A program made the translations under genes and the position numbers. DNA of 64,000 nucleotides from Parcubacteria group bacterium. Its GTDB lineage: Bacteria; Patescibacteriota; Patescibacteriia; Patescibacteriales; GWC2-42-12. The notes under the pieces are model-generated. The model was not told the origin of the DNA. It saw nothing but the letters and a program-made list of their open reading frames with translations, and did not search any database. Location: the NCBI GenBank assembly GCA_016188785.1, contig JACPHD010000001.1, forward strand, positions 26,300 through 90,299. Reading direction: 5' to 3'. Positions 10,933-48,258 of the stretch are shown here, piece by piece (the first letter of the stretch is position 1; each line of letters opens with the position of its first letter).

Positions 10933-12204
10933 CTATAACATATTTTCCATTAACGCCAAAGTTTCTTGAGCGCATTTAGTCAGGCTGAAATCTTTTGCTC
11001 GCTTAAGGCCGCGGCTGACTAATTGGCCGGCCAACTGCTTATCTAATAATATTTTTGCCATTTTTTCCGCCATATCATGCTGATCCTGCGGATTAAAAAG
11101 ACAAGCAGAATCTTTAACAACTTCCGGTATGGAGGCAATATTGGAAGCCGCCACCGGCACGCCGCAAGCCATGGCCTCTAAAACAGGTATGCCAAAGCCC
11201 TCATAAAGCGAAGGCAAAACAAATAAATCAGCGCCGTTATAAATGTAAGGCATGTCAGCTTCCGGAATCCAGCCGGTGATGATTATGCTATCATCAAGAT
11301 TAAATTCCTTAATGACGTATTTGACCTCATCAAAACCCAGCCCGGCCCGGCCCACTAAAACTAATTTATGTTTTATTTCCCTGAATTTTTGCCTCATAAT
11401 CGCGTAAGCTTCAACTAACTTAGCGGTATTTTTCTTCTTTTCCAAACGGCCGGCATAAAAAATATAAGGAGTGGTAAGACCATATTGGCTTAAAACCGGT
11501 TTGACTTTTTTTTGATCGCTAAGCCGATGATAAAGCTCGCTGTTAAAGCCGTTATGAACAACTTTAATTTTTTTCCCGTCAGCCTGATAGAATTCAATCA
11601 TTTCTTGTTTGGTAAATTCAGACACCGCGATAATCATTTTAGCTTTTTTAAGCGCGAATTTCGTTGACCAGCTATGGTAGTCAATAATATTAGGATGAAA
11701 TTTGCCCCAAGTGAGCAATCTGATTAAAAAGCTAAACGCGTCTGAAGTTAAGCCGCTTACCGGGCCGATTTTATCTAAGCTGTAAAGCTCGGCTTGGCGC
11801 TCAAAGCCGATGTCATGAATAGTAACGATTGATTTTCTGGGATAGATAATCGGCAGAGCGTGGGCCGGAATAAAAAGGAGATTGGGCCGATGCGCGATCA
11901 TTTCATAAGACAGGCGGATTTGCGTCCAAAAATAAGTAAACGGCCATTTTAAAATTTTAACGCGAAAATTTCCAAACGGACTTTTAATTTCTTGCCAGCC
12001 ATAACTATCTATTTTGCCCGGCGGAGCCGAATGATTTTCCTTGGTTAAATCAGCTAAACCGCCGACCAAGGGTTTGTCGCTATATAAAATATAACGATTT
12101 TTAGAATCAAGTTTAGCCAGCTCTCTTATTAAATAATAAGAATACCACTCGGTGCCGCCTTTAAATTCTCTATTCGCCCTTGAGGCGTCAATGCCTATAA
12201 GCAT
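10933..12204 (-). CDS. Glycosyltransferase family 4
   Basis: 'LEAMACGVPVAASNIASIPEVV'. Confidence 0.75.
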   Translation of the reverse strand: MLIGIDASRANREFKGGTEWYSYYLIRELAKLDSKNRYILYSDKPLVGGLADLTKENHSAPPGKIDSYGWQEIKSPFGNFRVKILKWPFTYFWTQIRLSYEMIAHRPNLLFIPAHALPIIYPRKSIVTIHDIGFERQAELYSLDKIGPVSGLTSDAFSFLIRLLTWGKFHPNIIDYHSWSTKFALKKAKMIIAVSEFTKQEMIEFYQADGKKIKVVHNGFNSELYHRLSDQKKVKPVLSQYGLTTPYIFYAGRLEKKKNTAKLVEAYAIMRQKFREIKHKLVLVGRAGLGFDEVKYVIKEFNLDDSIIITGWIPEADMPYIYNGADLFVLPSLYEGFGIPVLEAMACGVPVAASNIASIPEVVKDSACLFNPQDQHDMAEKMAKILLDKQLAGQLVSRGLKRAKDFSLTKCAQETLALMENML

Positions 12205-12214
12205 AAATAATACA

Positions 12215-12450
12215 TGTCATTGCGGGCTCCCGCCCGTTTCGCAAGCGAAGCGTTGCGGGCGGGTGACCCGCAATCCCCGCCCGCCTTGACTTCGCGGTTT
12301 AAAATTAAGATGAATATAATATTTTATACTAAATATTTAATCTTAATAAATAGGCTATACGGTCAAGGCGAAGTCGGGCGCGGCAGAAACTTGTTCTAAG
12401 CGAAAAAATCTGGATTCCGGCTCGCCTTCGGCTTAAAGGCCGGAATGACA
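12215..12450. mobile_element. MITE-like GC-rich element with TGTCATTGCGGG...CCGGAATGACA termini (family copy 1)
   Basis: Shares the GTCATT/AATGAC termini and internal GC palindromes with copies at 41779-41994, 45329-45473 and 48144-48258. Confidence 0.55.
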
Positions 12451-12459
12451 AGAAAAAAA

Positions 12460-24945: not shown

Positions 24946-25560
24946 TTAAGCGAATTTTCTAATCACTCCCCTGACCACTCCCTGAATTAGCGGGTCGGCC
25001 GCGTAAATCGGCTTCATGGCTGAATTAGCCGGCTGCAGTCTGATGCGCGCCTGCTCGCGGTAAAATTTTTTCAAAGTGGCATAAGCATTGTTTAAAAGCG
25101 CTACCACCACATCGCCGTTTTGCGGCGACGGATTGCGCTCCACGATTACATAATCGCCGTCTAAAATTCCGTCTTCAATCATTGATTCGCCTTTAACTTT
25201 TAAAACGTAACTATTGGCGCTGTCGGTTACGAAATCAGCCGGCACGGCGATCGTGTCTTGTTCTTCAACCGCTTCGATCGGTTCGCCGGCTGTTATCAGG
25301 CCGACTAACGGCAATTCTAAACTGGCGGTCCAATTCACGGCCGTGGGAATAATTTCAATTGAGCGCGCTTGATTAAACGAAGTTTTTAGCATCTGCTTTT
25401 TCTCCAAAGTTTGCACATGCGCGTGAATCGTGGCCGGACTGGCTAAATTAAAATGCCGGCCGATTTCTCTTAAGCTGGGCGCGTAGCCGTTATCGCGCGT
25501 AAATTCAGTTATAAAATCCAGAATTTGCCTTTGTCTTTTGGTTAAATTGTTGCCCATATA
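24946..25560 (-). CDS. lexA: LexA repressor (HTH plus S24 peptidase)
   Basis: 'ITAG' cleavage site, Ser in 'KGESM', Lys in 'ATLKK'. Start taken at MGNNLTKRQRQIL. Confidence 0.85.
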   Translation of the reverse strand, partial: YMGNNLTKRQRQILDFITEFTRDNGYAPSLREIGRHFNLASPATIHAHVQTLEKKQMLKTSFNQARSIEIIPTAVNWTASLELPLVGLITAGEPIEAVEEQDTIAVPADFVTDSANSYVLKVKGESMIEDGILDGDYVIVERNPSPQNGDVVVALLNNAYATLKKFYREQARIRLQPANSAMKPIYAADPLIQGVVRGVIRKFA

Positions 25561-25597
25561 GTTTATGTTAAAAATTAGTTTTCCACAATACTCTTTT

Positions 25598-28448: not shown

Positions 28449-28573
28449 TTTATCTCCCTCCTTGTTCCATAATTATATTATAGCAGAAAAATTATTATTT
28501 TTCCATTAAAATTTTTGATTTTCCCTTTAATTATTTTATGGAAATATTACTTATTTAGCCGTCTTGATAAGAA

Positions 28574-29128
28574 TTATAATGGTAATTTTAAAACAATAAA
28601 TTCCTCTAAGTCATCTTTTATTAATAATCGTGATAACGATGATACTTTCTGCAATGAATAGCAAGGATTATGAGAAAATCCTATATATTCCACATTTTTA
28701 TTTAAATGTTTTACTTTTTTTATCGCTGGGTTTAAATCAGAATCAGATGAAATAATTATAGCCGTATCCCAGATATCGTCATACGCCCCAACCAATAAAT
28801 CAACTGCCAATTTAACATCAACGCCTTTTTCATGATAACCGCCACTGTTAAATAAAAAATTTCCTTTCTTAATAACAAATCCTTGCGCTGTTAAATTATT
28901 AAATAACCTTAACTGATTGGCTCGAAGATTTTGGCCTTTTTGATCGTTGTCTTTAGCTCTAATGGCCCCGACATAATAGCGGCAGGAAATAATTTCCCTG
29001 CCCCTGGCAAGTTTTTTACATAGCCCGACATAACTAAAATTAATAGTGTTAGTAATTTGTAGTTCCTTTAGTTTATGATATAAATTACTGCCATCAATAA
29101 AAACGGCCACTCTTTCATTTATTAACAT
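28574..29128 (-). CDS. NYN-domain (LabA-like) RNase
   Basis: 'VAVFIDGSNLY', 'KGVDVKLAVDLL', 'DTAIIISSDSDL'. Confidence 0.8.
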   Translation of the reverse strand: MLINERVAVFIDGSNLYHKLKELQITNTINFSYVGLCKKLARGREIISCRYYVGAIRAKDNDQKGQNLRANQLRLFNNLTAQGFVIKKGNFLFNSGGYHEKGVDVKLAVDLLVGAYDDIWDTAIIISSDSDLNPAIKKVKHLNKNVEYIGFSHNPCYSLQKVSSLSRLLIKDDLEEFIVLKLPL

Positions 29129-29333
29129 AATATCAAAAACCCACCGTGCCCCCGAAGGGAGCAGAGTGGGTGATTTTAGCTAAATAAAGGAATTTCATCC
29201 ATTTTTCTGCGATACTTCCATGCGATACTTCCAATAGGGTAATACTACTTTAAAAAATTTCACTTGTCAAGACTTATCCACAGATAATATCTATTATAGC
29301 ATAAATTTTTATGATAACGAAATTCAGACATAT

Positions 29334-29939: not shown

Positions 29940-30131
29940 CTAACGTAGCGATAGAAACCATAATGGCTGAAAAAATATGCCAAAATTGCCTTTAGTCAAA
30001 GTACTGCCTAAGCCGGCGCCGTTAGGCCCTAAAAAACCAAACACCTCGCCTTTGCCCACTGAAAAAGAAATATTATCCACGGCCGTAAGCGCGCCGAATT
30101 TTTTAGTTAAATTTTTTACTTCTATTATCAT
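29940..30131 (-). pseudogene. Remnant of the N-terminus of an ABC ATPase gene
   Basis: '[38 protein letters not shown]' then a frameshift: Walker A broken ('GAGLGSTL'). Confidence 0.5.
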
Positions 30132-30782: not shown

Positions 30783-31556
30783 TTATTTTATCAAAATTAT
30801 GGTGTGGCCTTCGGCATAACTATCGTCGCCCACATTCTCAATCGTATTCCAATCGCCCCACAGCTCCATGGCTTTGCCTACGTTAAAAGATTCTTCATTA
30901 AAGATCCAATGTTTTTTGTTGTCCGCGCCGATAGCGTAAATTTTTTGCGAAGACGGATTTTTGATAAGTTTCATAAGATTATTGCTAGTTATTATTGAAC
31001 TATTATATTCGCTGACTATGTCTTTAAGCAATTGCTCATAGGTGCGTCCGCTGGCCGCTAAGCCGCTTTTCGGGTCGGTTTTACGCGCCGGATCTAAAAT
31101 AAAATGCCCGGCCACGGCCGTGGCTGGATTTAACTTGAACTTATAGCAGACATAAGCCAAGACCCAGACATATCTTTTGTAGCTTTCAGCCGCGTTAATA
31201 TTAGAGCCATAGCAATATTCCACGCCGATGGCCGCGTCATTAGCGTCATAACCGTATAGTTCATTGTCTTTACTTACATTATATAGAACCTGCCAGGCTT
31301 TTTCCGGTTTGTCGCTCGTCAGGGCCGGAATGCATTCAATGATTTCTTTGTCATCGGTAAAAATATGGGCCGAGGCGTTAGCGTCATTGGCGGTTCTTTC
31401 ATAATATGCCACGTTGCCGGCCGCGGTTGAGTTGGGATTGCCCGTGTCATGCGCCACGACGAATTTAACGCCAGGAGATATTAAGAGACCTGACCGGCGG
31501 TTGGTATTATTAGTAAGATATCTGGTTATAATTGGGTATTTTTGTTTAAAGCTCAT
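30783..31556 (-). CDS. N-acetylmuramoyl-L-alanine amidase (Amidase_2/PGRP-type, lysin-like) with a C-terminal extra domain
   Basis: 'VVAHDTGNP', 'ASAHIF', 'GHFILDPARKTDP'. Confidence 0.7.
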   Translation of the reverse strand: MSFKQKYPIITRYLTNNTNRRSGLLISPGVKFVVAHDTGNPNSTAAGNVAYYERTANDANASAHIFTDDKEIIECIPALTSDKPEKAWQVLYNVSKDNELYGYDANDAAIGVEYCYGSNINAAESYKRYVWVLAYVCYKFKLNPATAVAGHFILDPARKTDPKSGLAASGRTYEQLLKDIVSEYNSSIITSNNLMKLIKNPSSQKIYAIGADNKKHWIFNEESFNVGKAMELWGDWNTIENVGDDSYAEGHTIILIK

Positions 31557-31590
31557 AAATTATTGTGTTAATTTGCTAGTATTTTATGAA

Positions 31591-31760
31591 TTAGCTCGAA
31601 CTGAATTCAAAAAAAGGTTTTAAACCAGCTTTTAAAAGCAAGAAATTCATTCACGGGCAAAGCCCGACTTTAGGCGACCGCGCCCGCCTTGACGCCGCAA
31701 GGCAGTCGGGCGGGTTTCAAGTTTTGGCGGCAAATTTTTTTAACACTAGGGCTTTTCAGT
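31591..31760 (+). repeat. ~170-bp repeat family, copy A
   Basis: 'GAATTAGCTCGAAC(T/C)GAATT(C/T)AAAAAAAGGTTTTAAAC...' is shared with 34360-34580 and, inverted, 39745-39972. Confidence 0.7.
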
Positions 31761-31840
31761 TACAATTATAAACTTTTTTAAATCATCAACTGGGATAATT
31801 CTTTGTATATCCGAATGATAGATCATGCTATTTGTCGGTT

Positions 31841-32212
31841 TTAATTCCTCTCTGTGGCTAATTTAACATCAATACCTTTAGCTAAAATATTTTGATAATC
31901 TTTAAAGCGATCGTCAACTTTAACAGTTTCTGTTCTGGTTCTAAGCTTACTGGTTTTAATAGTCCAACCGTAACTTTCCAGGGTGTTAAATAAATATGTT
32001 TGATTTGACATTGCCTTGGTGGTTTCATGATTACCGCCCCTTTCTCTAACGGTCCCAATGTAAAATCTTTTGCCTGGATATGCCAATTCTCTAACGCCAA
32101 TTAAAAATTTAGCGAATTCATCATAATTAAAATCACTATCATGACAACCAATCCGTTTTAATGCGAGATTATAAAAATTACCGCCGTCAATAAATATTTG
32201 TACTTTGTCCAT
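31841..32212 (-). CDS. NYN-domain protein, probably C-terminally truncated
   Basis: 'VQIFIDGGNFY', 'KGIDVKLAT' then a stop. An SDxxxxxPVDDLKK-like continuation is in another frame. Confidence 0.6.
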   Translation of the reverse strand: MDKVQIFIDGGNFYNLALKRIGCHDSDFNYDEFAKFLIGVRELAYPGKRFYIGTVRERGGNHETTKAMSNQTYLFNTLESYGWTIKTSKLRTRTETVKVDDRFKDYQNILAKGIDVKLATERN

Positions 32213-32315
32213 ATTTTAATGTTACACTGCAAGTAATTTTTTGGCAATAAAAAAACCTGCACACCACCCCGAAGGGCAGGCGCAGGCGACTTCTATAATT
32301 ATTATAGCAAAATGC

Positions 32316-33660
32316 CGGCGCGTGTCAATGGTTTGCACTCGTCCATGTCATACTTAACACCAGGGAGTGCAAAATATGTTAAACCATAGTAATATCTGTA
32401 GATTTGGCCATTTAAGCCAAACTAAAGCTACAGATATTATGCAAACACAAGCTGAAATAAAATTAAACCCTTTGCGGTGTTATCTTTCGCCGGAGGCGAA
32501 AAAAAGATTAAAATGGATGTATCTTGTAAAATACGAATGTGCCAATAATATTTCGCAGGCGGCCAACCGCCTCGGCATTTCTCGCGTCTGGCTGTCTCAA
32601 ATTCACAGCCGCTGGCAGAAACATCGCGAAGACCCCAGGAGTCTGGAGCCGGAGTCAAAAGCGCCGCATGACACGAGCAACCGTAAACGGATTGATGAAA
32701 AAGTTGAAAATAAAATTGTTGAAATCAGAAAAAAATACCAGCCCTGGGGCAAAGACAAATTATCGGTCATTTTAAAAAGGGATTATCAATTAATGGCCGG
32801 AGCCTCCACCGTCAATCGCTATCTCGTAAAACATAACCTGATTGATCCGAAACTATCCGAGAAAAATAAACTGGCCTGGCAGAGAAAAAAAGAAAAGGCA
32901 AATCTGAAATTTAAAATGAGGCCGCCGGCGGTAATCAAAGATTACAAACCCGGGGCGCTCTTAGAAAAAGACATGAAATTAGTCCTGAAAATGGGTATAT
33001 TCACTAACATGAATAAGCATCGCGCTAAAGAAAACTTCTGGTATCAGCATACCTTAATTGATTCTTTTACCCGCGTCAGAGCCGTTGGTTTAGCCGAGGA
33101 TTCTAACAGCCAAACAGCGGTAGCGGTTCAGGAGCAGGCGGTAAGCCGCCTGCCCTTCGCCATCGCGGCGATAAACAACGACAACGGCGGTGAGAATGAA
33201 AAAGATTTCTCTGTTTATCTGGAAAAAGAAAAAGTGGCTCAATTTTTTTCCCGCGCCGGCACGCCGACAGATAACCCGCGTGTTGAACGCTCTCATCTAA
33301 CGGACGAACTGGAATTTTACGCCCAAGGCAATCTGCATAAAAATTTTAACGATCAGGCTAAGGCAATATCAGAATGGGAACACACTTACAATTTCGTCCG
33401 GCCGCATCAGGCTCTCGGCTATCTAACACCCATGGAATTTTACAGGCTCTGGCAGAAAAACCCCGAAGAGGCCCATCGGATTAAAAATAAATACAGCGCT
33501 TATCTTAAAAAACAAAGTCGTCGTTTGGCTAAATCCAGACAAATGAAAAACAAGGAACAAATTGAAAATCTAATGAAATTTATTGATAAAAAATTGTCAA
33601 AATCTAATTCTTAAAAGTGTTAATTATGTTCGTGGACTTGAACATGTTATCAATGTTAAA
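32316..33660 (+). mobile_element. IS481-like insertion sequence (approximate ends, imperfect TIRs)
   Basis: Left end 'TGTCAATGG...CATACTTAACAC' versus right end 'GTGTTAATTATG...CATTGATAACA' gives partial inverted identity. Higher GC than the flanks. Confidence 0.45.
32367..33614 (+). CDS. DDE transposase (rve integrase core, IS481-like) with N-terminal HTH
   Basis: 'ISQAANRLGISRVWL' HTH. rve core '...NDNGGENEKDF...', 'RPHQALGYLTPMEFY'. Confidence 0.8.
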   Translation: MQNMLNHSNICRFGHLSQTKATDIMQTQAEIKLNPLRCYLSPEAKKRLKWMYLVKYECANNISQAANRLGISRVWLSQIHSRWQKHREDPRSLEPESKAPHDTSNRKRIDEKVENKIVEIRKKYQPWGKDKLSVILKRDYQLMAGASTVNRYLVKHNLIDPKLSEKNKLAWQRKKEKANLKFKMRPPAVIKDYKPGALLEKDMKLVLKMGIFTNMNKHRAKENFWYQHTLIDSFTRVRAVGLAEDSNSQTAVAVQEQAVSRLPFAIAAINNDNGGENEKDFSVYLEKEKVAQFFSRAGTPTDNPRVERSHLTDELEFYAQGNLHKNFNDQAKAISEWEHTYNFVRPHQALGYLTPMEFYRLWQKNPEEAHRIKNKYSAYLKKQSRRLAKSRQMKNKEQIENLMKFIDKKLSKSNS

Positions 33661-33716
33661 TTTGCTTTTCTCTATATCATCGTCATTATTAAGGTTTTTA
33701 ACCACTAAAAATACTT

Positions 33717-34286
33717 TTATTTTATCCTGAAAATTTCCTTGATTTTATTAACATTTTCTTTGGCCGCGAAAAAAGCTTCAATAAAAGCTGATTTAGGTAT
33801 CATTCTGCCTTCTAAGGCTTCTCTCTTTTTCGTAAAATCCCAGGCAATTATTGGATCCTGGTATATATAGAATATCACAACCGGCCGCGAATGGTCTAAC
33901 GATCTTTTAACATTTTTATAAGAAACATCATACTTGGAAAACGTCCCATCAACTATCGCCTCTAATTTCTTGGCGAGAATATGGTCATACAGCTTTTCAA
34001 CTCCAATTGAAGAAGCACCTTGGACAACATCAGAATTCTTACCATTATATTGAGGCATAATTTCTTTGATTTCATCGGCGTCGATCCTAACTAATTTCTT
34101 ATCCAATATTTTGGCTAAATTTTTAGAGAATTCGGTCTTGCCCGCCCCCGGCGAACCGGCCATAAAAATAGTAACTGGATTTACAATCGATTTATAAAAA
34201 TCAGGCTTAGCAAATTTTTCAATTAACAACTTTCTATTTTTCTTTATAAATTTTTTTGCTTCTTCCGCTTCTTTAATATTTATCAT
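33717..34286 (-). CDS. Zeta-toxin/AAA_33-like P-loop kinase
   Basis: Walker A 'MAGSPGAGKT'. 189 aa. Confidence 0.55.
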   Translation of the reverse strand: MINIKEAEEAKKFIKKNRKLLIEKFAKPDFYKSIVNPVTIFMAGSPGAGKTEFSKNLAKILDKKLVRIDADEIKEIMPQYNGKNSDVVQGASSIGVEKLYDHILAKKLEAIVDGTFSKYDVSYKNVKRSLDHSRPVVIFYIYQDPIIAWDFTKKREALEGRMIPKSAFIEAFFAAKENVNKIKEIFRIK

Positions 34287-34359
34287 GCTTTTATTATATC
34301 ATAAAATAATAAAAATATTAAAGAAACCAAAATATCACTTTATATTGGGAGCTTTGCTC

Positions 34360-34580
34360 AAGTTGGCTGGCATTTTACGAATTAGCTCGAACCGAATTTA
34401 AAAAAAGGTTTTAAACTATCTTTTAAAAGCGCCTCTGCCGGCAGGCAGGCGCCCCCGCTTTTAAAAGCAAACATTTTCCCGCGGGCAAAGCCCGATTTCA
34501 GGCGATTTCAAGTTTTTCTGCAGGCGAAAGCCCTCTCCGCCCCGCTTCTGCTGGGCGATTTGGCGGCAAATTATTTTTTG
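34360..34580 (+). repeat. ~200-bp repeat family, copy B (left flank of the R-M module)
   Basis: Begins 'AAGTTGGCTGGCATT' (like the tRNA-Gln 3' end). Core is near-identical to the inverted copy C. Confidence 0.75.
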
Positions 34581-34613
34581 TTTTATATCTACATTTGGAA
34601 CTAAGATTATAAA

Positions 34614-36131
34614 TTAATAATTGATAATTGGAAAACCTCTTGAACTTAAGATATTATTGAACTCTTTTCGAAATAAGAATACCGCGTTTTTTCTTTCTTT
34701 CTTGTAAAGAGTATTCACAAAAGGGTCAAAATCCCAATTCGTGTATTCTGGCGTAGCAAGTTTACTTTTCATAAATTTTTTAATACCAACAGCCTGCATT
34801 ATTTGCACTATTTCCTCGAATTCACGAATACCACATAAGGAATAAGGCATTTCTTCTAACCACTCTTTAGGCAATCCATTTTGTCTTAATTTTTCTATGA
34901 CTTTATTTTTTATTTCTTGGTAAATAGGATCTGCAAATGAATACCACTCCTCTAATGTCAAAATAACTGGATAAATTTCCCTTTTTTTGTCATATGGAAA
35001 ACTTGGATACTGTTTATCTATATGATCTTTTATGGTTTTATAAACCTGAACTATCGCATCAGAAATCTTTTCAAGTTCTTTGTCTAATAATAAAGTATCA
35101 TTTAATTCTATTTTTGCTGGTACAATTAGCCTTTTTGTCTTACATTCAATAAATAATGCGGCATCTTTTTCGTCTAATATCCAATCAACCGTATTTTTTT
35201 TATTTTTCTTCGGCCCATATTCTTCTTCGGGATAAATTGTCATTTTCTTATTGGCTTTATTTAATACCTCGCCAACATATTTCTGGAAAGTAAATCCAAA
35301 AGGTTTGTCAAAATCTTTTTCGCGACAAATCTCATAATAAATTCCGCTGGTAAACCGCCAATATAATAAAGTAGTCAATGGACAAAAGTAAACATTATCT
35401 CCTTTTAATTTATTTTTTATTATTGGGTATAATCTTAACATATAAGTATTATAAGCAAATTTTTCATCAACTGAGTGTTCACTTTGTATAATTTTTTTAA
35501 AATCATCCAGATCAATAGAAATTATGTTAAATAATTTTTTTATCTCATCATTAGTTATCCCTTTTATATTCGTACTAAATGGTTCTTTGATGATAAAATT
35601 ATTCTTGTAATGACCAAGTAGTGATGCGCCCATTAAAAATAAATTTTCGTAGTGTAAGCCGACTTTTTTATATAATATTTTATCAATGTCCAGTTCGTTA
35701 AAAATTCTATAATATCTATAAAAATACATGAGATTAATATTTAATTGCCACGGGAACTGTCTATGCGCAAGTCTAAACAATTCCTTTAAAACATTATTTT
35801 TATCAACATGACATAATTTATTTTCAATTTCCTTGATTTTATTTATTGCGCCAATAAAGTAATTCCATTTTTTTAATGTTTCCAATCCCTTTTCAGTATC
35901 TTGCGAATTAAGTATAATTTCACGCAATAAAAGTTCTAATTCCCATTGGTAAATCCTTTTTTCAGGTAAAGTTTTTGCATTAATAAATTCTGGTATAGTC
36001 TCGATATCGTTAGGAAACGAATTTCCAAATTGCAGATGGTTCGAATAAGCCCATATTACACAAAATGATTCATTTATGCTAAGTTTTCTTAAATGATTTT
36101 TCAATGGTTTGTATAATGAGTAATTATCCAT
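34614..36131 (-). CDS. Hypothetical protein with a possible PD-(D/E)xK motif (LDEKDAALFIECKTK)
   Basis: 505 aa, divergent from the LexA-MTase gene with an 88-bp shared promoter region. Confidence 0.4.
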   Translation of the reverse strand: MDNYSLYKPLKNHLRKLSINESFCVIWAYSNHLQFGNSFPNDIETIPEFINAKTLPEKRIYQWELELLLREIILNSQDTEKGLETLKKWNYFIGAINKIKEIENKLCHVDKNNVLKELFRLAHRQFPWQLNINLMYFYRYYRIFNELDIDKILYKKVGLHYENLFLMGASLLGHYKNNFIIKEPFSTNIKGITNDEIKKLFNIISIDLDDFKKIIQSEHSVDEKFAYNTYMLRLYPIIKNKLKGDNVYFCPLTTLLYWRFTSGIYYEICREKDFDKPFGFTFQKYVGEVLNKANKKMTIYPEEEYGPKKNKKNTVDWILDEKDAALFIECKTKRLIVPAKIELNDTLLLDKELEKISDAIVQVYKTIKDHIDKQYPSFPYDKKREIYPVILTLEEWYSFADPIYQEIKNKVIEKLRQNGLPKEWLEEMPYSLCGIREFEEIVQIMQAVGIKKFMKSKLATPEYTNWDFDPFVNTLYKKERKNAVFLFRKEFNNILSSRGFPIINY

Positions 36132-36153
36132 AATATTTATAAAATTAAATGTT

Positions 36154-36182
36154 TTGACTTCGGTAAATCTTCGGTATATACT
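36154..36182 (+). promoter_or_regulatory. Promoter of the LexA-MTase gene: TTGACT-N17-TATACT with direct repeat CTTCGGTA-N3-CTTCGGTA in the spacer
   Basis: Read directly; same architecture as the lexA promoter at 25598-25626. Confidence 0.6.
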
Positions 36183-36219
36183 ATAAATATAACATGTGGA
36201 TAAATAATGTCAAATAACT

Positions 36220-38712
36220 ATGCCTACTCTAACGAAGAGACAAAAGCAAATTTTAGACTTCATTCGTGAGTATATTAATAAACATAATATATCCCCTACC
36301 TTTGAAGAAATTAAAAAACATTTTAGATTATCTGCGCTATCTACCGTACATCAGCATATTGAAGCATTAATCAAAAAGGAATTTTTAGTAAAAAATAATA
36401 ACTTATCAAGAGGACTCGAGTTAAAAACAAAAGGGGAAGACATAGTTGAAATTCCTTTACTCGGCGTGATTGCTGCTGGTCAACCGATCGAAGTCTTTGA
36501 AGAACACGAGACTATAACCGTTCCGCGCACCAATTTATCTAACGCCGGTGAACATTTCGCATTGAAAGTACAAGGCAATTCCATGATTGATGAAGGAATT
36601 TTTAATGGCGATACTGTAATTATCAGAAAACAAAATACGGCCAGCAACGGAGAAACTATAGTGGCTATAATAAATGGCAATGAAGCGACATTAAAAAAGA
36701 TATATAGATTTCAAAATGGTTTTAGGTTACAACCGGCGAACCCAGAAATGAAACCGATCTTTGTAAAAAGTTTGCTTGTCCAAGGTAAAGTTGTAAGTGT
36801 TATAAGAAACTTTGAAAACAATACTATCATTGAACAAATTTCTAGCAATGAAGAATATATTGTTTCCAAAGAATATTCGGAAAAAGGTATAAATTTAGAT
36901 CAGCTCATAAGTGAGCTGGTAAATTTTAGAGATATTATAATATTTAAATACGGCTTTAATACAGCAGATGATTTTTTAAAAACACAAATTATTGACGGCT
37001 TAATTCTACAAGAAATTTTTAAGCACATCGCAAATAAAAAAAATGTAAATACTAACATCCAAGCAATAAACGAAATACTGAAAGAACTAAACCTAAATCA
37101 TGTAGAATTTACAAAGGATGATATAAAAATTTTTGGGGATATTTTAAAAAAATACAATTTTAGTAGCTGCGATGATGATGTGCTTGGTTTTATATATCAA
37201 AGCATTAGGCCCCAGAGTGGCAGAAAAGATGATGGCCAATATTACACCCCCAAAAAAGTAGTTAAATATATTTTAAATAATGTAAAAATAAATTTAAAAG
37301 AAAACAAAAATTTAAAAATTTTAGACCCAGCCTGTGGATCCGGACAATTTTTGCTGGAAACATACGATATTTTGTATAACCAATACAAAACAATGGGTGA
37401 AAAAAACGAAGCGGACATCCATTACAAAATCATTAATAATCACTTACTTGGCTTTGATATAGATAAAATCGCCGTGAGTTTGGCTAAACTTAATTTATTT
37501 CTAAAATCAAAAGGTACGTATACAGAAAAATTTAATATTTTAATAACAAATACGCTTAAGCGAGATTCTAACTTACTAGAACCAAATCAATTGGACAAAT
37601 ACAAAGGCAGTATTGATTTTGTAGTGGGCAACCCTCCCTGGGGAGCAAATTTAAATGAAGAACAAAAAAAATATTATAAAAAGCATTATGATATAGGAAA
37701 AAATGGATTAAACACATTTACTCTTTTTATTGAACGTGCTTTTGATTTTCTTAAAAAAAATGGAAAATTAGGATACTTAATACCTGAGGCCTATCTAAAA
37801 ATTAAAGTGCACCAACTTTCTCGCCTGCAAATATTAAATAGAGCCAAGATACTACTCCTTGGAATTAGCGGGGATATATTTCAAAAAGTTTACGCTCCTT
37901 GTTTAGTAATAATTTTCCAACAAGAAAAAGATAAAACAGCCAGGGAAAAAAATGAAATAAATATAGAAAATGGAGTTTTCAACGGACATGAAGAACATAA
38001 GACGATAATTCAAAAAAATTTTGAAAAATCCGCTGAAAATATTTTTAACATCAACCAAGTCGGCGAAACTGAAGAAATACTAAACCATATCCTTGAACAA
38101 AAAAATTATTATCTTAAAGATAACGCATTATTTATATTAGGTATCGTAACCGGTAACAATAAAAAGTATCTAATCCGAGAAAAGAAAGACAATAAATATT
38201 CCCCTATTATAGTGGGCAAAGATATAAGCAAATATAAAATCAACTTCAGCGGCAATTATTTTATCTATGACAAAAACATACTCCAGCAAATTGCTCCGAA
38301 AGAATATTATACCGTACCTGAAAAAATTATTTACAAGTTTATTGGAGAAAAAATCACATTTGCTTATGACGATAAACAATATTTTACTTTAAACAATGCT
38401 AATGCATTCGTGCCTAAAATAGAAAAAATAAAAACCAAATATATTTTGGCCTTATTAAATTCAAAATTGATGCAATTTTTTTACAATAAATCTTTTTTTA
38501 CCGTAAGAGTACTCCGTGGCAATTTAGAAAAATTGCCTTTAGTTTACGCGGATCAAAAAAAACAAGAACAAATTATCAGCCTAGTTAATCAAGCAATAAA
38601 TTCAGAAGAAGATAGAATACTAAAAATAATTTTAGACAAAATTGACGACGAGGTATTCTCTCTTTATAAAATATCAAAAAAGTGGCAACAATATATTTGT
38701 AAAGAGACATAA
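36220..38712 (+). CDS. Fusion protein: complete LexA (HTH plus S24 peptidase) fused to a gamma-class N6-adenine DNA methyltransferase with a C-terminal TRD
   Basis: aa 1-200 are LexA-like ('VIAAGQPIE', 'QGNSM', 'ATLKK'), a close paralogue of the lexA at 24946. Then 'LDPACGSGQFLL' (motif I), 'GNPPWG' (motif IV) and ~300 aa TRD. No stop or frameshift between the parts. Confidence 0.8.
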   Translation: MPTLTKRQKQILDFIREYINKHNISPTFEEIKKHFRLSALSTVHQHIEALIKKEFLVKNNNLSRGLELKTKGEDIVEIPLLGVIAAGQPIEVFEEHETITVPRTNLSNAGEHFALKVQGNSMIDEGIFNGDTVIIRKQNTASNGETIVAIINGNEATLKKIYRFQNGFRLQPANPEMKPIFVKSLLVQGKVVSVIRNFENNTIIEQISSNEEYIVSKEYSEKGINLDQLISELVNFRDIIIFKYGFNTADDFLKTQIIDGLILQEIFKHIANKKNVNTNIQAINEILKELNLNHVEFTKDDIKIFGDILKKYNFSSCDDDVLGFIYQSIRPQSGRKDDGQYYTPKKVVKYILNNVKINLKENKNLKILDPACGSGQFLLETYDILYNQYKTMGEKNEADIHYKIINNHLLGFDIDKIAVSLAKLNLFLKSKGTYTEKFNILITNTLKRDSNLLEPNQLDKYKGSIDFVVGNPPWGANLNEEQKKYYKKHYDIGKNGLNTFTLFIERAFDFLKKNGKLGYLIPEAYLKIKVHQLSRLQILNRAKILLLGISGDIFQKVYAPCLVIIFQQEKDKTAREKNEINIENGVFNGHEEHKTIIQKNFEKSAENIFNINQVGETEEILNHILEQKNYYLKDNALFILGIVTGNNKKYLIREKKDNKYSPIIVGKDISKYKINFSGNYFIYDKNILQQIAPKEYYTVPEKIIYKFIGEKITFAYDDKQYFTLNNANAFVPKIEKIKTKYILALLNSKLMQFFYNKSFFTVRVLRGNLEKLPLVYADQKKQEQIISLVNQAINSEEDRILKIILDKIDDEVFSLYKISKKWQQYICKET

Positions 38713-38716
38713 ACGA

Positions 38717-39349
38717 TTAAATAATTGCCGAGAATAAATTTCTTGGTTCGGTAGCAGATTCTTTCATCTGCTCGTAACCTGGGTGCCATTGATAAGTCGC
38801 ATTTGAACCTGTGGTACTGTGCTGTGGAGAAAATTTTGCGCCAAAAATCGGTTTGCCGGCCCTAATATCTCTTTTATTTAAAACCCAATAAAATTTTCCC
38901 TCTGGCGTTATTCCTAAAAAAATATAGTAATTAATCCTTGGGTCTTTTAAACGTATTTGTTCAAAAATAAACTTATTGCCTTGATAAATAGTGGCTGTTT
39001 TAACTTCTATATATTTATTCTTTTTCAATTCTAAAAAATCAGGATTCAATTGATTTTGGTTTCCTCTCTCGAACTTTTTAAGTGCATCTTTACCAGCAAC
39101 ATTCTCGTAATCGGCTCGAAATAAATCCTCTCCGGCACAACCTATTTGGCGTGAACGCAAAAGTTTAAATCGTAAATACAAATCAGCATCCTCAACTTCT
39201 TTGGTTATAGAGATACCTTTTGTCATGGCGAAACCCAAAACAAATTGATAGTTACCTTCATTAATTTTATCTTTCAATAAATCATCCACATCAACGCCTT
39301 TCAGGTGAGCGTCATAAAACCGATTAAATATTTCTTCAATAGTTTTCAT
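38717..39349 (-). CDS. Putative type II restriction endonuclease (PD-(D/E)xK: NPDF...YIEVK)
   Basis: Convergent with the MTase (4-bp gap). Start overlaps the upstream XRE gene (ATGA). Confidence 0.45.
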   Translation of the reverse strand: MKTIEEIFNRFYDAHLKGVDVDDLLKDKINEGNYQFVLGFAMTKGISITKEVEDADLYLRFKLLRSRQIGCAGEDLFRADYENVAGKDALKKFERGNQNQLNPDFLELKKNKYIEVKTATIYQGNKFIFEQIRLKDPRINYYIFLGITPEGKFYWVLNKRDIRAGKPIFGAKFSPQHSTTGSNATYQWHPGYEQMKESATEPRNLFSAII

Positions 39350-39564
39350 AAAAAATAGCTAATTTGTTTTTTATATAAACCCGCAAAATTTTTTAATTCA
39401 ATAATATCTATTCTCTGCTCACCGGCCTCAACTTTAGAAACATAAGACTGAGGTTTTTTTGTTTTTTCCGATACCTCTTTCTGGGTTAAACCCGCATCTA
39501 ATCTGGCCTGTTTAAGGAGTCCTATAACTCGTTGATATTCACTTGTTCGTATTGTTTTAGGCAT
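39346..39564 (-). CDS. XRE-family HTH protein, likely R-M controller (C protein)
   Basis: 72-aa HTH_3-like 'LTQKEVSEKTKKPQSYVSKVE', overlapping the downstream nuclease gene. Confidence 0.6.
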   Translation of the reverse strand: MPKTIRTSEYQRVIGLLKQARLDAGLTQKEVSEKTKKPQSYVSKVEAGEQRIDIIELKNFAGLYKKQISYFL

Positions 39565-39577
39565 TTATATATTATAT

Positions 39578-39607
39578 ATTCAAATCAAGAATATTCAAAG
39601 TTTGAAT
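39578..39607 (-). promoter_or_regulatory. Tandem C-box-like palindromes ATTCAAAGTTTGAAT (perfect) and ATTCAAATCAAGAAT (imperfect) upstream of the C gene
   Basis: Read directly, 14-45 nt upstream of the XRE start codon. Confidence 0.55.
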
Positions 39608-39744
39608 AGTATGATATAATACAACTGGGCATTAAGAAAAGTTTGCTTTTGGCTTAAAATATTCAGTAGATATAATCTGCACTCGCTCGGAAATAAAAAA
39701 AATGAATTTTTTATTTCTCTCGCTCGTTTGATTATAAAATTCGA

Positions 39745-39972
39745 GCCGATATTTTTTACAGGCTCGGCGCCTGTCCCGTTGCATAACGGGAGCAGTTTTT
39801 TAAAGCCGGGCTTTGCCCGCGGGGAAATTTTTACCCCGTTGAATAACTGGGGATTACTTTTAAAAGCGGGGGCGCCTGCCTGCCGGCAGAGGCAGAGGCG
39901 CTTTTAAAAGATAGTTTAAAACCTTTTTTTAAATTCGGTTCGGATTAAATCATACATTGCCAGCCAATTTGG
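39745..39972 (-). repeat. ~200-bp repeat family, copy C (inverted; right flank of the R-M module)
   Basis: The reverse complement matches copy B. Terminal 'CCAGCCAATTTGG' is an inverted copy of the tRNA-Gln 3'-end region 'CCAAATTGGCTGC'. Confidence 0.75.
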
Positions 39973-39988
39973 AATAAGCCTAAAATTT

Positions 39989-40017
39989 AAAGCCAAACCC
40001 CATTCGGGTTTGGCTTT
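39989..40017 (-). terminator. Rho-independent terminator downstream of tRNA-Gln
   Basis: Minus-strand read: AAAGCCAAACCCGAATGGGGTTTGGCTTT followed by a T-run. Confidence 0.6.
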
Positions 40018-40039
40018 AAATTGGGAGCGTTGTCCAAAT

Positions 40040-40113
40040 TGGCTGCGGGACCTGGATTCGAACCAAGATAACATCCTCCAGAGGGATGTGTCCTACCATT
40101 AGACGATCCCGCA
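40040..40113 (-). tRNA. tRNA-Gln (anticodon CUG)
   Basis: Minus-strand sequence TGCGGGATCGTCTAATGGTAGGACACATCCCTCTGGAGGATGTTATCTTGGTTCGAATCCAGGTCCCGCAGCCA. U1-A72, T-loop TTCGAAT, anticodon loop CTCTGGA. 3' half nearly identical to the E. coli tRNA-Gln 3' half. Confidence 0.75.
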
Positions 40114-41778: not shown

Positions 41779-41994
41779 TTTCATTGCGAGGAGCGTCTTC
41801 TTTTGTCATTCCGGCCTTGAGCCGGAATCCCCGCCCGCCTCGCCTTGCGGCTCGCATGGCGGGCGCGGCAGATTAAGCCCGTAGTTAGTTTGGTTTACTC
41901 TGATGATTATAAATTCAGAGGTTCGTGGCGCTTAAACCTGGATTGCGGGTCAAGCCCGCAATGACAATTAAAAAATTATTGCTCGCAATGACAA
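41779..41994. mobile_element. MITE-like element TTTCATTGCGAGG...GCTCGCAATGACAA (family copy 2)
   Basis: Nested palindromes GTCATTCCGGCC/GGCCGGAATCC and GGATTGCGGGTCAAGCCCGCAATGAC. Confidence 0.6.
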
Positions 41995-45328: not shown

Positions 45329-45473
45329 TTGTCATTGCGAGGAACGTTATTTTAATTTGTCATTGCGGGCTTGACCCGCAATCCAGGACGATGGAAATAT
45401 TGACCAACGTGGTTTTTCTGGATTCCTGCCTGCGCAGGAATGACGAAAGAAATTTGCTCGCTCGCAATGACAA
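45329..45473. mobile_element. MITE-like element TTGTCATTGCGAGG...CTCGCAATGACAA (family copy 3)
   Basis: Inner hairpins GTCATTGCGGGCTTGACCCGCAATCC and GGATTCCTGCCTGCGCAGGAATGAC. Confidence 0.6.
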
Positions 45474-48143: not shown

Positions 48144-48258
48144 CCGTCATTCCTGCGGAGGCAGGAATCCAGAAATTCCACGAACATTTTTTCTCCCCGC
48201 ATATGCGGGGCGGATTCAGGGGAATGACGATACTTTTCGGACAGTCTTGAAATGACAA
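48144..48258. mobile_element. MITE-like GC-rich element CGTCATTCCTGCGGAGGCAGGAATCC...GAAATGACAA (family copy 4)
   Basis: Includes palindrome CCCCGCATATGCGGGG. Lies between the cysS stop and the dusB start. Confidence 0.55.

Follow-up and report, generated by a model that had tools for sequence, protein, structure and literature searches.

Tyrosine integrases classically land at transfer RNA (tRNA) genes. In the Islander work of 2014, no serine recombinases with specificity for tRNA genes were known (PMC4383910). Tandem, decaying islands at tRNA genes are known for tyrosine integrases and for tycheposons; a large serine recombinase (LSR) is present in 27 of 937 tycheposon-like elements, with the target not stated (10.1101/2020.12.28.424599). 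Here we consider a 64,000-nucleotide stretch of DNA from a Parcubacteria group bacterium (contig JACPHD010000001.1; hereafter the window), in which three copies of an intergenic repeat, A, B and C, mark out a small genomic island beside a tRNA-Gln gene. Patescibacteria, the wider group concerned, have tiny genomes and few known mobile elements.

We propose that these repeats are the conserved non-coding ends of integrative elements that are moved by an LSR and inserted at the CCA end of tRNA genes, a reading to which we assign a probability of roughly three in four. The recombinase would insert the element at the CCA end, with the crossover directly after the tRNA. The arm next to the tRNA (P′) would be the 3′ end of the recombinase open reading frame (ORF), running antisense into the tRNA. 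The recombinase gene would then be followed by an inverted attP-like copy, made up of a second P′ copy and the first part of the repeat (the head), and continued by a tail that we call type 2. An XRE-family regulator and cargo, usually restriction-modification or toxin genes, would come next, and a reversed repeat with a different tail (type 1) would close the element, its head abutting host DNA to form attR. The head itself would be the P half-site: its inner 4-6 nt would copy the acceptor/CCA end of the tRNA, and its TTCGR motif would copy the T-loop, displaced 5 bp further out. The window itself contains remnants only, most likely two tandem recombinase-less elements at tRNA-Gln.

Islander-type tyrosine integrase islands and the tycheposons of Prochlorococcus share with this arrangement insertion at a tRNA 3′ end, tandem piling at one tRNA, degraded integrase-less remnants with partial att repeats, and defence and niche cargo (10.1101/2020.12.28.424599). 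The present elements differ from them in using a serine recombinase, and in duplicating 4-6 nt of the tRNA instead of a 3′ gene fragment. SCCmec and pseudo-SCC elements are inserted by LSRs (Ccr) at the 3′ end of rlmH, form tandem composites with repeated att sites, and also exist in recombinase-less forms. Insertion by an LSR at the 3′ end of a conserved gene, tandem composites and recombinase loss are therefore common to both systems, yet the target and att sequences are different, a single LSR takes the place of ccrAB, and the elements are only ~3-6 kb long with XRE-led cargo. Among streptococcal integrative and conjugative elements (ICEs) in rumA, the att site lies inside the serine integrase gene, whose 3′ end differs between the integrated and excised states (PMC4701971). 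The overlap of att with the end of the integrase ORF is a further likeness; those elements, however, have a protein-coding target, are conjugative, and show no mimicry of tRNA.

Large serine integrases of phages and integrative elements (A118/Listeria integrase, phiC31, Bxb1) resemble the system described here in the three LSR domains of the enzyme, in an inferred attP arm that shares its inner bases with the attB arm, and in an outer motif shifted by exactly 5 bp. The phage enzymes are at most 27.5% identical to the LSR, which unlike them has the CCA end of a tRNA as its target and an ORF that ends within that target. Furthermore, the proposed attP lacks dyad symmetry, the element contains an additional inverted attP-like copy, and no recombination directionality factor was identified. 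Searches of the literature on the repeat and on LSRs in Patescibacteria returned nothing relevant. The enzyme class and the register rule that separates attP from attB are already known; a serine clade dedicated to tRNA 3′ ends is absent from the literature searched and appears undescribed. Such a clade would widen the known target range of serine integrases. It would also explain the exchange and stacking of restriction-modification, toxin and antiphage genes beside tRNAs in Patescibacteria, with the repeat acting as a sequence signature of islands even after the recombinase is lost. Since the T-loop and CCA end are near-universal, such LSRs might also serve as integration tools with ready-made sites.

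The repeats, the recombinase and the tRNA gene

The first-pass annotation of the window, made from the sequence alone, had reported the three copies and interpreted them as att-site scars of tRNA-targeted elements. The copies are real, with similarities far above chance in within-window BLASTN: 87% over 118 nt between B and C (E 8e-38), 88% over 68 nt between A and B (E 5e-20), and 81% over 70 nt between A and C (E 5e-14). They lie within 8.5 kb, with none in the remaining 55 kb, and neither BLASTN nor a profile of the head revealed a fourth copy anywhere in the 64 kb. Their locations and orientations, A and B direct and C inverted, stand as first described. Their limits required correction to 31575-31747 for A, 34338-34585 for B and 39634-39995 for C; C had been made too short, its longer and different tail reaching the XRE promoter. 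The grouping of genes is also as first claimed, with B and C enclosing a module of XRE regulator, 210-aa protein, LexA-methylase fusion and 505-aa protein, and A and B enclosing a zeta toxin, an IS481-like transposase and a truncated NYN gene.

Every copy has a sharp start at GCT and a head of ~51 nt, which occurs in two main variants (GCTGGCATTTTATAAATTAGCTCGAACTGAATTCAAAAAAAGGTTTTAAAC and GCTCCGATTTTACGCCGAAGTTCGAACGG). Behind the head come one to three GC-rich hairpins, with the perfect palindrome CTTTTAAAAG as spacer; a core hairpin (CGCGGGCAAAGCCCGACTTTA) is next, and one of the two alternative tails completes the copy. The type 1 tail of A and B ends in GGCGATTTCAAGTTTTTC...TTTGGCGGCAAATT, beyond which lies the 3′ end of a convergent gene. 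The type 2 tail of C reads AAAAACTGCCAAAGAACCTG-TAAAAAATATCGGCTCGAACTTTATTTT-AAGCCAAAAGCAAACTTTTCTTTTTT, with an XRE gene in the same direction ~100 nt further on, as is regularly found downstream of type 2 tails. Copy A (31575-31747, forward strand) is the most decayed, and would be the attR (P-O-B′) at the outer end of the island. Copy B proper (34366-34585, forward strand), which would form the distal end of an element E1, comprises the head or P arm (34366-34416), GC hairpins, a core (34478-34495), a piece termed X that is antisense to recombinase codons ~30-38 (34501-34518), and the end motif TTTGGCGGCAAATT (34559-34577). Copy C proper (39634-39964, reverse strand) comprises the head or P arm (39914-39964), GC hairpins with CTTTTAAAAG between them, the core hairpin (39801-39823), stretches that correspond to parts of the recombinase ORF (39736-39800; Y and a C-terminal piece), an insert of 76 nt (39660-39735) and the leader AAGCCAAAAGCAAACTTTTC (39634-39659).

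Parts of the LSR ORF thus recur in the tails. The type 1 tail corresponds to codons ~26-38 in antisense, and the type 2 tail carries codons 43-49 and a C-terminal piece in sense. X and Y, each joined to one of the two head copies, are neighbours in the LSR ORF, where a small palindrome, variable through compensating changes, separates them. Both pieces of this split are kept from Falkowbacteria-like genomes to Magasanikbacteria; in Nitrospira the Y piece is kept, on a contig that carries the internal copy only.

Across the window and other genomes and metagenomes, the head profile identifies 56 copies, 45 of them distinct. The exact head 23-mer occurs 13 times in eight other Patescibacteria, Parcubacteria and Falkowbacteria genomes, and a 22-mer of the head matches 33 metagenome stretches, three by chance. 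The family ranges over Falkowbacteria-like and Magasanikbacteria members of the Patescibacteria, Nitrospira and Brocadia; Thermodesulfovibrionales also appear, by name only, in the list of homologues. The window is itself Falkowbacteria-like, its DnaX being 74% identical to that of a Candidatus Falkowbacteria metagenome-assembled genome with the same dnaX/tRNA-Gln synteny. Rather than being spread through genomes without relation to tRNA genes or islands, the copies are systematically tied to tRNA-adjacent recombinase elements. An origin from a phage or plasmid was considered and rejected, given that no head was found in IMG/VR and that the identity of the LSR to phage integrases does not exceed the value given above.

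The recombinase is clearest in locus L025 (numbers with this prefix denote loci from other genomes and metagenomes), where a tRNA-Asn gene is followed by a convergent gene for a 491-506-aa protein with Resolvase, Recombinase and Zn_ribbon_recom domains. Homologues with 72-95% amino acid identity stand beside heads in 14 fetched loci (duplicate records included; ~11 distinct copies). Their ORFs end inside genes for tRNA-Asn (L025), tRNA-Trp (L004, L056), tRNA-Gln (L048, L055) and tRNA-Ser (L053, L054), and a homologue of 37% identity likewise ends in tRNA-Gly (L005). The same order recurs: tRNA, convergent LSR, a short inverted copy of the LSR 3′ end, head, type 2 tail, XRE gene, cargo and a reversed type 1 copy. 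Intact members at L025, L048 and L053-L056 all encode the LSR. The clade is large, with thousands of homologues at 56-74% identity, and the four distant members examined all abut tRNAs and have the same upstream architecture. Its best named NCBIfam matches, CcrB and XisF, are well under cutoff.

Several details of the recombinase genes deserve mention in their own right. The ORF ends in a conserved FPNW that spans the junction (L025 4871-4912, L048 11707-11742, L053 1871-1885), the Trp codon TGG being the antisense of the tRNA CCA end. In one locus (L034 117-3222), a family LSR gene is split between residues 93 and 94 by an insert of ~1.57 kb. In another (L011 397-1893; also L019 and L038), a second LSR shares only 26% identity with the main enzyme, and its ORF continues through a hairpin straight into a family head; unrelated recombinases may therefore share the head arm.

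In the window, the tRNA-Gln(CTG) gene occupies 40040-40113 on the reverse strand (ARAGORN; Rfam tRNA model, 58.5 bits), with CCA encoded and the T-loop TTCGA at -23 from the CCA end. It would be the integration target and the B arm of attL. The resemblance between the copies and the 3′ end of this gene, noticed in the first-pass annotation, is larger than was stated there: in the within-window BLASTN, the 32 nt to the left of B (34338-34369) match forward-strand positions 40014-40045 at 84% (E 1e-4), that is, the last 6 nt of the tRNA together with its 3′ flank. This flank (40006-40039) is homologous to the P′ arm of L048, and would be the P′ arm of attL, a remnant of the 3′ end of a lost recombinase ORF that read on the forward strand, antisense into the tRNA. 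Further P′ copies lie outside the head of B (34338-34365, forward strand) and, inverted, against the head of C (39965-40000; inverted repeat I11, 40 nt, 83%). A P′ flank outside the head, as at B, is also present at L023, L028 and L018.

Together, the inverted copy beside C and the tRNA end make a palindrome with a 40-bp stem (39961-40045), whose DNA fold has an energy of -31.9 kcal/mol (z = -6.4). The two P′ copies in it are 5 nt apart. In intact elements they are ~1.5 kb apart, with the LSR gene in between, and the palindrome at 39965-40045 is most likely the leftover of recombinase gene loss. The P′ copies of the window differ at 7 of 22 positions, against 0 in six intact elements and 4 of 22 in L004, a decay that fits loss of function. 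We had considered that the flank shared by B and C was a displaced native flank of the tRNA (B′), and rejected this: it is absent from four empty sites in related genomes and has its homologue in the 3′-terminal part of the LSR ORF, and must therefore be element DNA. Copy C, which had been taken for an island boundary, is better described as an internal inverted attP-like copy.

The orthologous tRNA-Gln locus is that of L048, which has a DnaX 73% identical to that of the window and the same gene order. Its order is dnaX, tRNA-Gln, intact LSR, head, type 2 tail, XRE gene, cargo and three reversed type 1 copies. The head next to its LSR is the same rare variant as that of copy C (GCTGGCAATGTATGATTTAATCCGAACC; 94.5% over 73 nt), and the window is colinear with it except that ~1.58 kb from tRNA end to head, comprising the LSR gene and its flanks, are absent. 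This deletion explains the lack of a recombinase in the window. Residues 448-489 of the L048 enzyme match 39956-40072 (tblastn, E 1e-3), leaving 42 recognisable codons. The earlier remark that the island has a DDE transposase and no site-specific recombinase is correct in that this 42-aa C-terminal remnant is all of the LSR in the 64 kb. No tyrosine recombinase was detected among the neighbouring ORFs scanned against Pfam or the Pfam labels of related loci, a search that was not exhaustive over the 56 loci or the whole window.

Empty sites, which the first-pass annotation had suggested looking for, exist in four closer relatives (L045, L047, L049 and L050; DnaX 83-85% identical), where tRNA-Gln and the synteny to its right are present. 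A host gene or terminator directly follows tRNA-Gln there and P′ sequence is lacking, and no head occurs in 21.6 kb (L045, L047, L049) or 17.5 kb (L050). At the tRNA side, occupied and empty sites hence differ by DNA that starts right after CCA. A separate observation concerns another close relative (L051/L052, about 11800-12215), whose tRNA-Gln region contains a broken tRNA-Gln-like sequence. The break comes after CTCTG of the anticodon loop, where a structured stretch and an ORF for a GIY-YIG endonuclease intervene, and a second tRNA-like copy follows; this is possibly an intron or homing-endonuclease insertion in a tRNA.

The junction at B, which has the P-O-P′ form expected between tandem elements, leads us to read the locus as two elements. 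E1 would extend over 34366-40039, with its defence cargo between C and B. E2, presumably the older of the two, would extend over 31575-34365, carry the zeta, NYN and IS481 genes, and end with copy A. E1 probably arrived second, next to the tRNA. The assignment of type 1 copies to outer ends fits the flanks found across the family: a P′ copy lies outside 14 of 20 type 2 heads and 3 of 18 type 1 heads (Fisher p = 0.0013), and the flanks of 15 of the 18 type 1 heads are unrelated.

Short runs of co-oriented genes (NYN, methyltransferase, SocA) alternate in L048/L002 with three type 1 copies that all point the same way, which is reminiscent of an integron cassette array with the repeats as attC sites. 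We regard an integron as next to impossible: the enzyme is a serine recombinase, the loci examined have no IntI-type tyrosine recombinase or attI, and the repeats lack the R′′-L′′/L′-R′ organisation of attC.

Register of the proposed attachment sites and competing parsings

We compared the predicted att sites of eight loci at tRNAs for Asn, Trp, Gln and Ser (two of them), five isoacceptors of four tRNA identities in all, drawn from Falkowbacteria-like genomes, Magasanikbacteria, Nitrospira and Brocadia. In all eight, the head, read as its reverse complement, terminates in 4-6 nt equal to the 3′ end of the cognate tRNA, and the distance of TTCGR from the junction is 5 nt greater in the P arm than in the T-loop of the tRNA. 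The positions are -28 and -23 in seven loci, and -26 and -21 in L055, whose tRNA is annotated 2 nt shorter, without encoded CCA. For the Listeria serine integrase, the motif bound by the zinc-ribbon domain (ZD) is 5 bp nearer the centre in attB than in attP, and inner contacts are shared (PMC3783163). The head accordingly has the hallmarks of a P half-site, apparently one that imitates the T-arm and acceptor end of the tRNA in stretched form, and the LSR would be expected to contact TTCGR and the shared bases. If so, the 5-bp-shifted T-loop copy would be a natural illustration, across several targets, of how attP and attB are discriminated.

The complete element in L055 allows these sites to be recombined on paper. 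Its LSR overlaps tRNA-Gln, and XRE and methylase/HEPN cargo diverge from the LSR; at a distance of 3.6 kb the head region recurs, inverted and perfect over 113 nt. The attL reads ..CGGAACAA|CGTTGG.. and the attR ..GTGAACAA|ATTAAAATCACC.., the latter with a terminator-like hairpin: the type 1 head ends ...GAACAA, then a hairpin and T-run resembling the tRNA's own terminator follow. GAACAA is common to attL, the internal attP-like site and attR. The window has counterparts of all three: attL at 40040, the attP-type junction of B and, putatively, attR at A.

Apart from the register-shifted T-loop motif, the tRNA is matched over those 4-6 nt only, with no long 3′ repeat (typically tens of nt) of the kind left by tyrosine-type islands. 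The initial interpretation as att scars of a tRNA-targeted element is supported, with corrections. The LSR beside the same repeats, the L048 orthologue and the empty sites all indicate tRNA-tied ends of integrative elements; simple tRNA duplications of the tyrosine type they are not. They are modular end regions of ~170-330 nt, of which the first ~30 nt resemble a serine-integrase attP half-site.

A number of observations weigh against our proposal. The recombinase is absent from the window, and recombination at these sites is deduced from their anatomy. Typical serine-integrase sites are symmetric, and manual comparison of the P and P′ arms gave no convincing dyad symmetry. The distance of TTCGR from the junction also exceeds that of the Listeria integrase ZD motif by several bp. 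Within intact elements there is a complete third, inverted attP-like copy between XRE and LSR, for which a simple model has no need. Two LSR copies (L001 and L019) abut just 8-9 nt of tRNA-like sequence, and in L003 a type 2 head stands 37 nt downstream of tRNA-Asn without P′. No circular or excision junction was found among the contigs examined. Finally, the outer flank of copy A does not match the empty sites, where the genes past tRNA-Gln differ in each relative (HD, GlnA, thioredoxin, DnaJ), so that the left boundary is unproven.

The same data can also be parsed into two units using the same sites and enzyme, which makes this a serious alternative and a further point against our proposal, even though we judge it unlikely. 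The LSR and its flanks would then constitute a mini-element of ~1.6 kb with near-perfect palindromic ends, and the cargo a recombinase-less unit bounded by inverted heads. B and C would be the terminal inverted repeats of such a cargo unit, the LSR unit having been lost between the tRNA and C. Indeed, the LSR gene sits inside perfect inverted repeats, with 0 mismatches in 22-40 nt at six loci, extending over 77 nt at 98.7% in L055 and L056 and over 87 nt at 100% in L054. A second inverted pair surrounds the cargo (113 nt at 100% in L055; 102 nt at 83% for B and C in the window), and L014 is a 6.1 kb contig with inverted heads at both ends. A head/head junction would moreover be dyad-symmetric like a typical serine-integrase attP, and the LSR occurs in either orientation relative to the head (L015 and L011 as opposed to L025 and others). 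However, neither a P′-free junction between tRNA and head nor a head-to-head junction occurs in any locus. The combination of LSR, head and XRE gene recurs at different tRNAs and in different phyla, with the inner nucleotides of the head matching each tRNA, for which movement of the whole unit is the simpler account. The conservation of P′, for its part, may reflect nothing but coding for the LSR C-terminus (FPNW).

Taking the proposal of whole, LSR-moved elements one step further, we tentatively suggest, at somewhat less than even odds, a cross-phylum family of small integrative elements in which the LSR acts at the CCA end by way of a register-shifted, tRNA-mimicking attP arm. In this family, the internal inverted attP copy could serve as an autoregulatory decoy, as the basis of an inversion, or for modular exchange of cargo.

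BOX and Correia elements are modular repeats built of head, hairpins and tail, with promoter- and terminator-like content. The present repeats have a similar modular build, but BOX and Correia elements are dispersed genome-wide and have neither a dedicated site-specific recombinase nor a tRNA link. Could the repeats nevertheless be non-autonomous intergenic elements of this sort, or miniature inverted-repeat transposable elements (MITEs), moved without any tRNA link by, for example, an IS481-type DDE enzyme? They are multi-copy, intergenic and modular (head, variable GC hairpins, tail), many metagenome contigs break within the repeat, and a DDE transposase lies between A and B. This origin is nonetheless very improbable. 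Single copies lack terminal inverted repeats and show no target-site duplication or duplicated flanks, and copies are clustered in islands and not dispersed. Elsewhere no IS481 element is found near them, and their association with the LSR and tRNA ends is strong.

Regulatory content is nevertheless apparent. The reverse strand of the head carries the promoter-like TTGAAT-18-TAAAAT, which is predicted to read outward across the junction; in copy A it lies at 31610-31581 on the reverse strand and is aimed at the amidase gene. In intact elements the motif aims at the LSR gene, and at outer ends at the host gene displaced by the element, whose start in empty sites is just 9-12 nt past the tRNA. 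The GC hairpins with CTTTTAAAAG arms are most likely two-way terminators that would insulate the cargo from its flanks. The leader GCCAAAAGCAAACTTTTC lies upstream of both XRE and LSR start codons, which suggests a shared operator or leader of the two genes. We at first took the end of the type 2 tail (AAGCCAAAAGCAAACTTTTC) for a remnant of the recombinase C-terminus, and dropped this idea because it precedes XRE and LSR starts in all lineages, as a shared leader or operator would. A sigma-54 promoter in the head was rejected on the wrong spacing of GG and GC, as read from the sequence.

It might be argued that regulation is the whole purpose, and that the repeat serves as a gene for a structured non-coding RNA, or purely as a terminator/promoter cassette, rather than as a recombination site. 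The GC-rich hairpins with their T/A runs, the gene starts 15-80 nt beyond the promoter-like strand of several heads, and the position of GCCAAAAGCAAACTTTTC before XRE and LSR genes would all agree with this. We consider it highly improbable. No Rfam match was obtained at gathering score or at E up to 10 in the covariance-model search that had been advised for the possibility of a structured RNA; copy B as RNA does not fold more stably than shuffled sequences (z = +0.31), and hairpin variants break pairs without compensating changes. Expression control alone would also leave the tRNA-specific inner nucleotides of the head and the 5-nt register unaccounted for. Regulatory roles are, on the other hand, compatible with LSR-moved element ends as secondary functions. 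A degenerate tRNA or tRNA 3′ half was rejected as well, since ARAGORN and the Rfam tRNA model detect the real tRNA-Gln only and manual parsing of a T-arm fails.

Cargo genes and neighbouring sequence

The first cargo gene of E1 encodes an XRE-family helix-turn-helix regulator (39346-39564, reverse strand; Pfam HTH_3, E 1.5e-11), homologues of which follow type 2 copies in other loci. Next to it, a gene for a 210-aa protein (38717-39349, reverse strand) has no match in Pfam or NCBIfam. Its position corresponds to that of RE_MamI in L056 and of a 305-aa protein in L025, which makes it a candidate for the role of restriction endonuclease or effector in an XRE-controlled module. The third gene (36220-38712, forward strand) encodes, according to Pfam, a fusion of a LexA DNA-binding domain and S24 peptidase with an N6 adenine DNA methyltransferase that has a TaqI_C specificity domain; NCBIfam matches are to lexA and PglX/MAD2-like proteins. 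The last cargo gene of E1 (34614-36131, reverse strand) encodes a 505-aa GapS1-like antiphage protein, whose match to NCBIfam antiphage_GapS1 (E 1.8e-26) is under the curated cutoff.

Fusions of a full LexA (DNA-binding domain and self-cleaving S24 peptidase) to methyltransferases are also found in L025 (419-1885) and L056 (1624-3183). The methyltransferase family differs between fusions, being N6_Mtase/TaqI_C in the window and N6_N4_Mtase elsewhere. LexA-methylase fusions are thus recurrent cargo beside an XRE gene and a putative nuclease, which suggests restriction-modification modules wired to an SOS signal. The host's own lexA is at about 24949-25572.

In E2, a zeta toxin gene (33717-34286, reverse strand; Pfam Zeta_toxin, E 9e-36) is accompanied by an IS481-like DDE transposase gene (32367-33614, forward strand; Pfam rve/rve_3/HTH), a secondary insertion. 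This transposase did not make the repeats, because it is unassociated with the repeat family in other loci. The truncated NYN-domain gene (31841-32212, reverse strand) is 29% identical to the NYN protein at 28574-29128 (E 7e-12), and NYN genes adjoin type 1 copies in L048. The first gene past copy A encodes an N-acetylmuramoyl-L-alanine amidase (30783-31556, reverse strand; Pfam Amidase_2), whose start is 19 nt from the limit of the copy. A homologue with 67% identity is found in the element-rich locus L030.

Beyond copy A, the NYN gene with 200 nt upstream (28568-29324) has 84-87% DNA identity to cargo between type 1 repeats in L002/L048 and L008, with no repeats around it in the window. At 29994-30128 there is a 45-codon remnant of an ABC-transporter gene that is found a few kb past tRNA-Gln in L045 and L047. 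The variable region therefore reaches to the left of copy A.

Two other kinds of repeat were observed in the window. One is an unrelated family of short palindromic intergenic repeats (GTCATTGCGGGCTTGACCCGCAATCC / GTCATTCCTGCG..GCAGGAATCC) at 41798-41827, 41937-41974, 45350-45387, 45408-45445, 48145-48182 and 12427-12456, a family that is also present beside dnaX in L047, L050 and L051. The other consists of three direct repeats of ~150-170 nt at 8878-9513, which are 60-74% identical and contain GC-rich segments and TTAAAAGC-like motifs.

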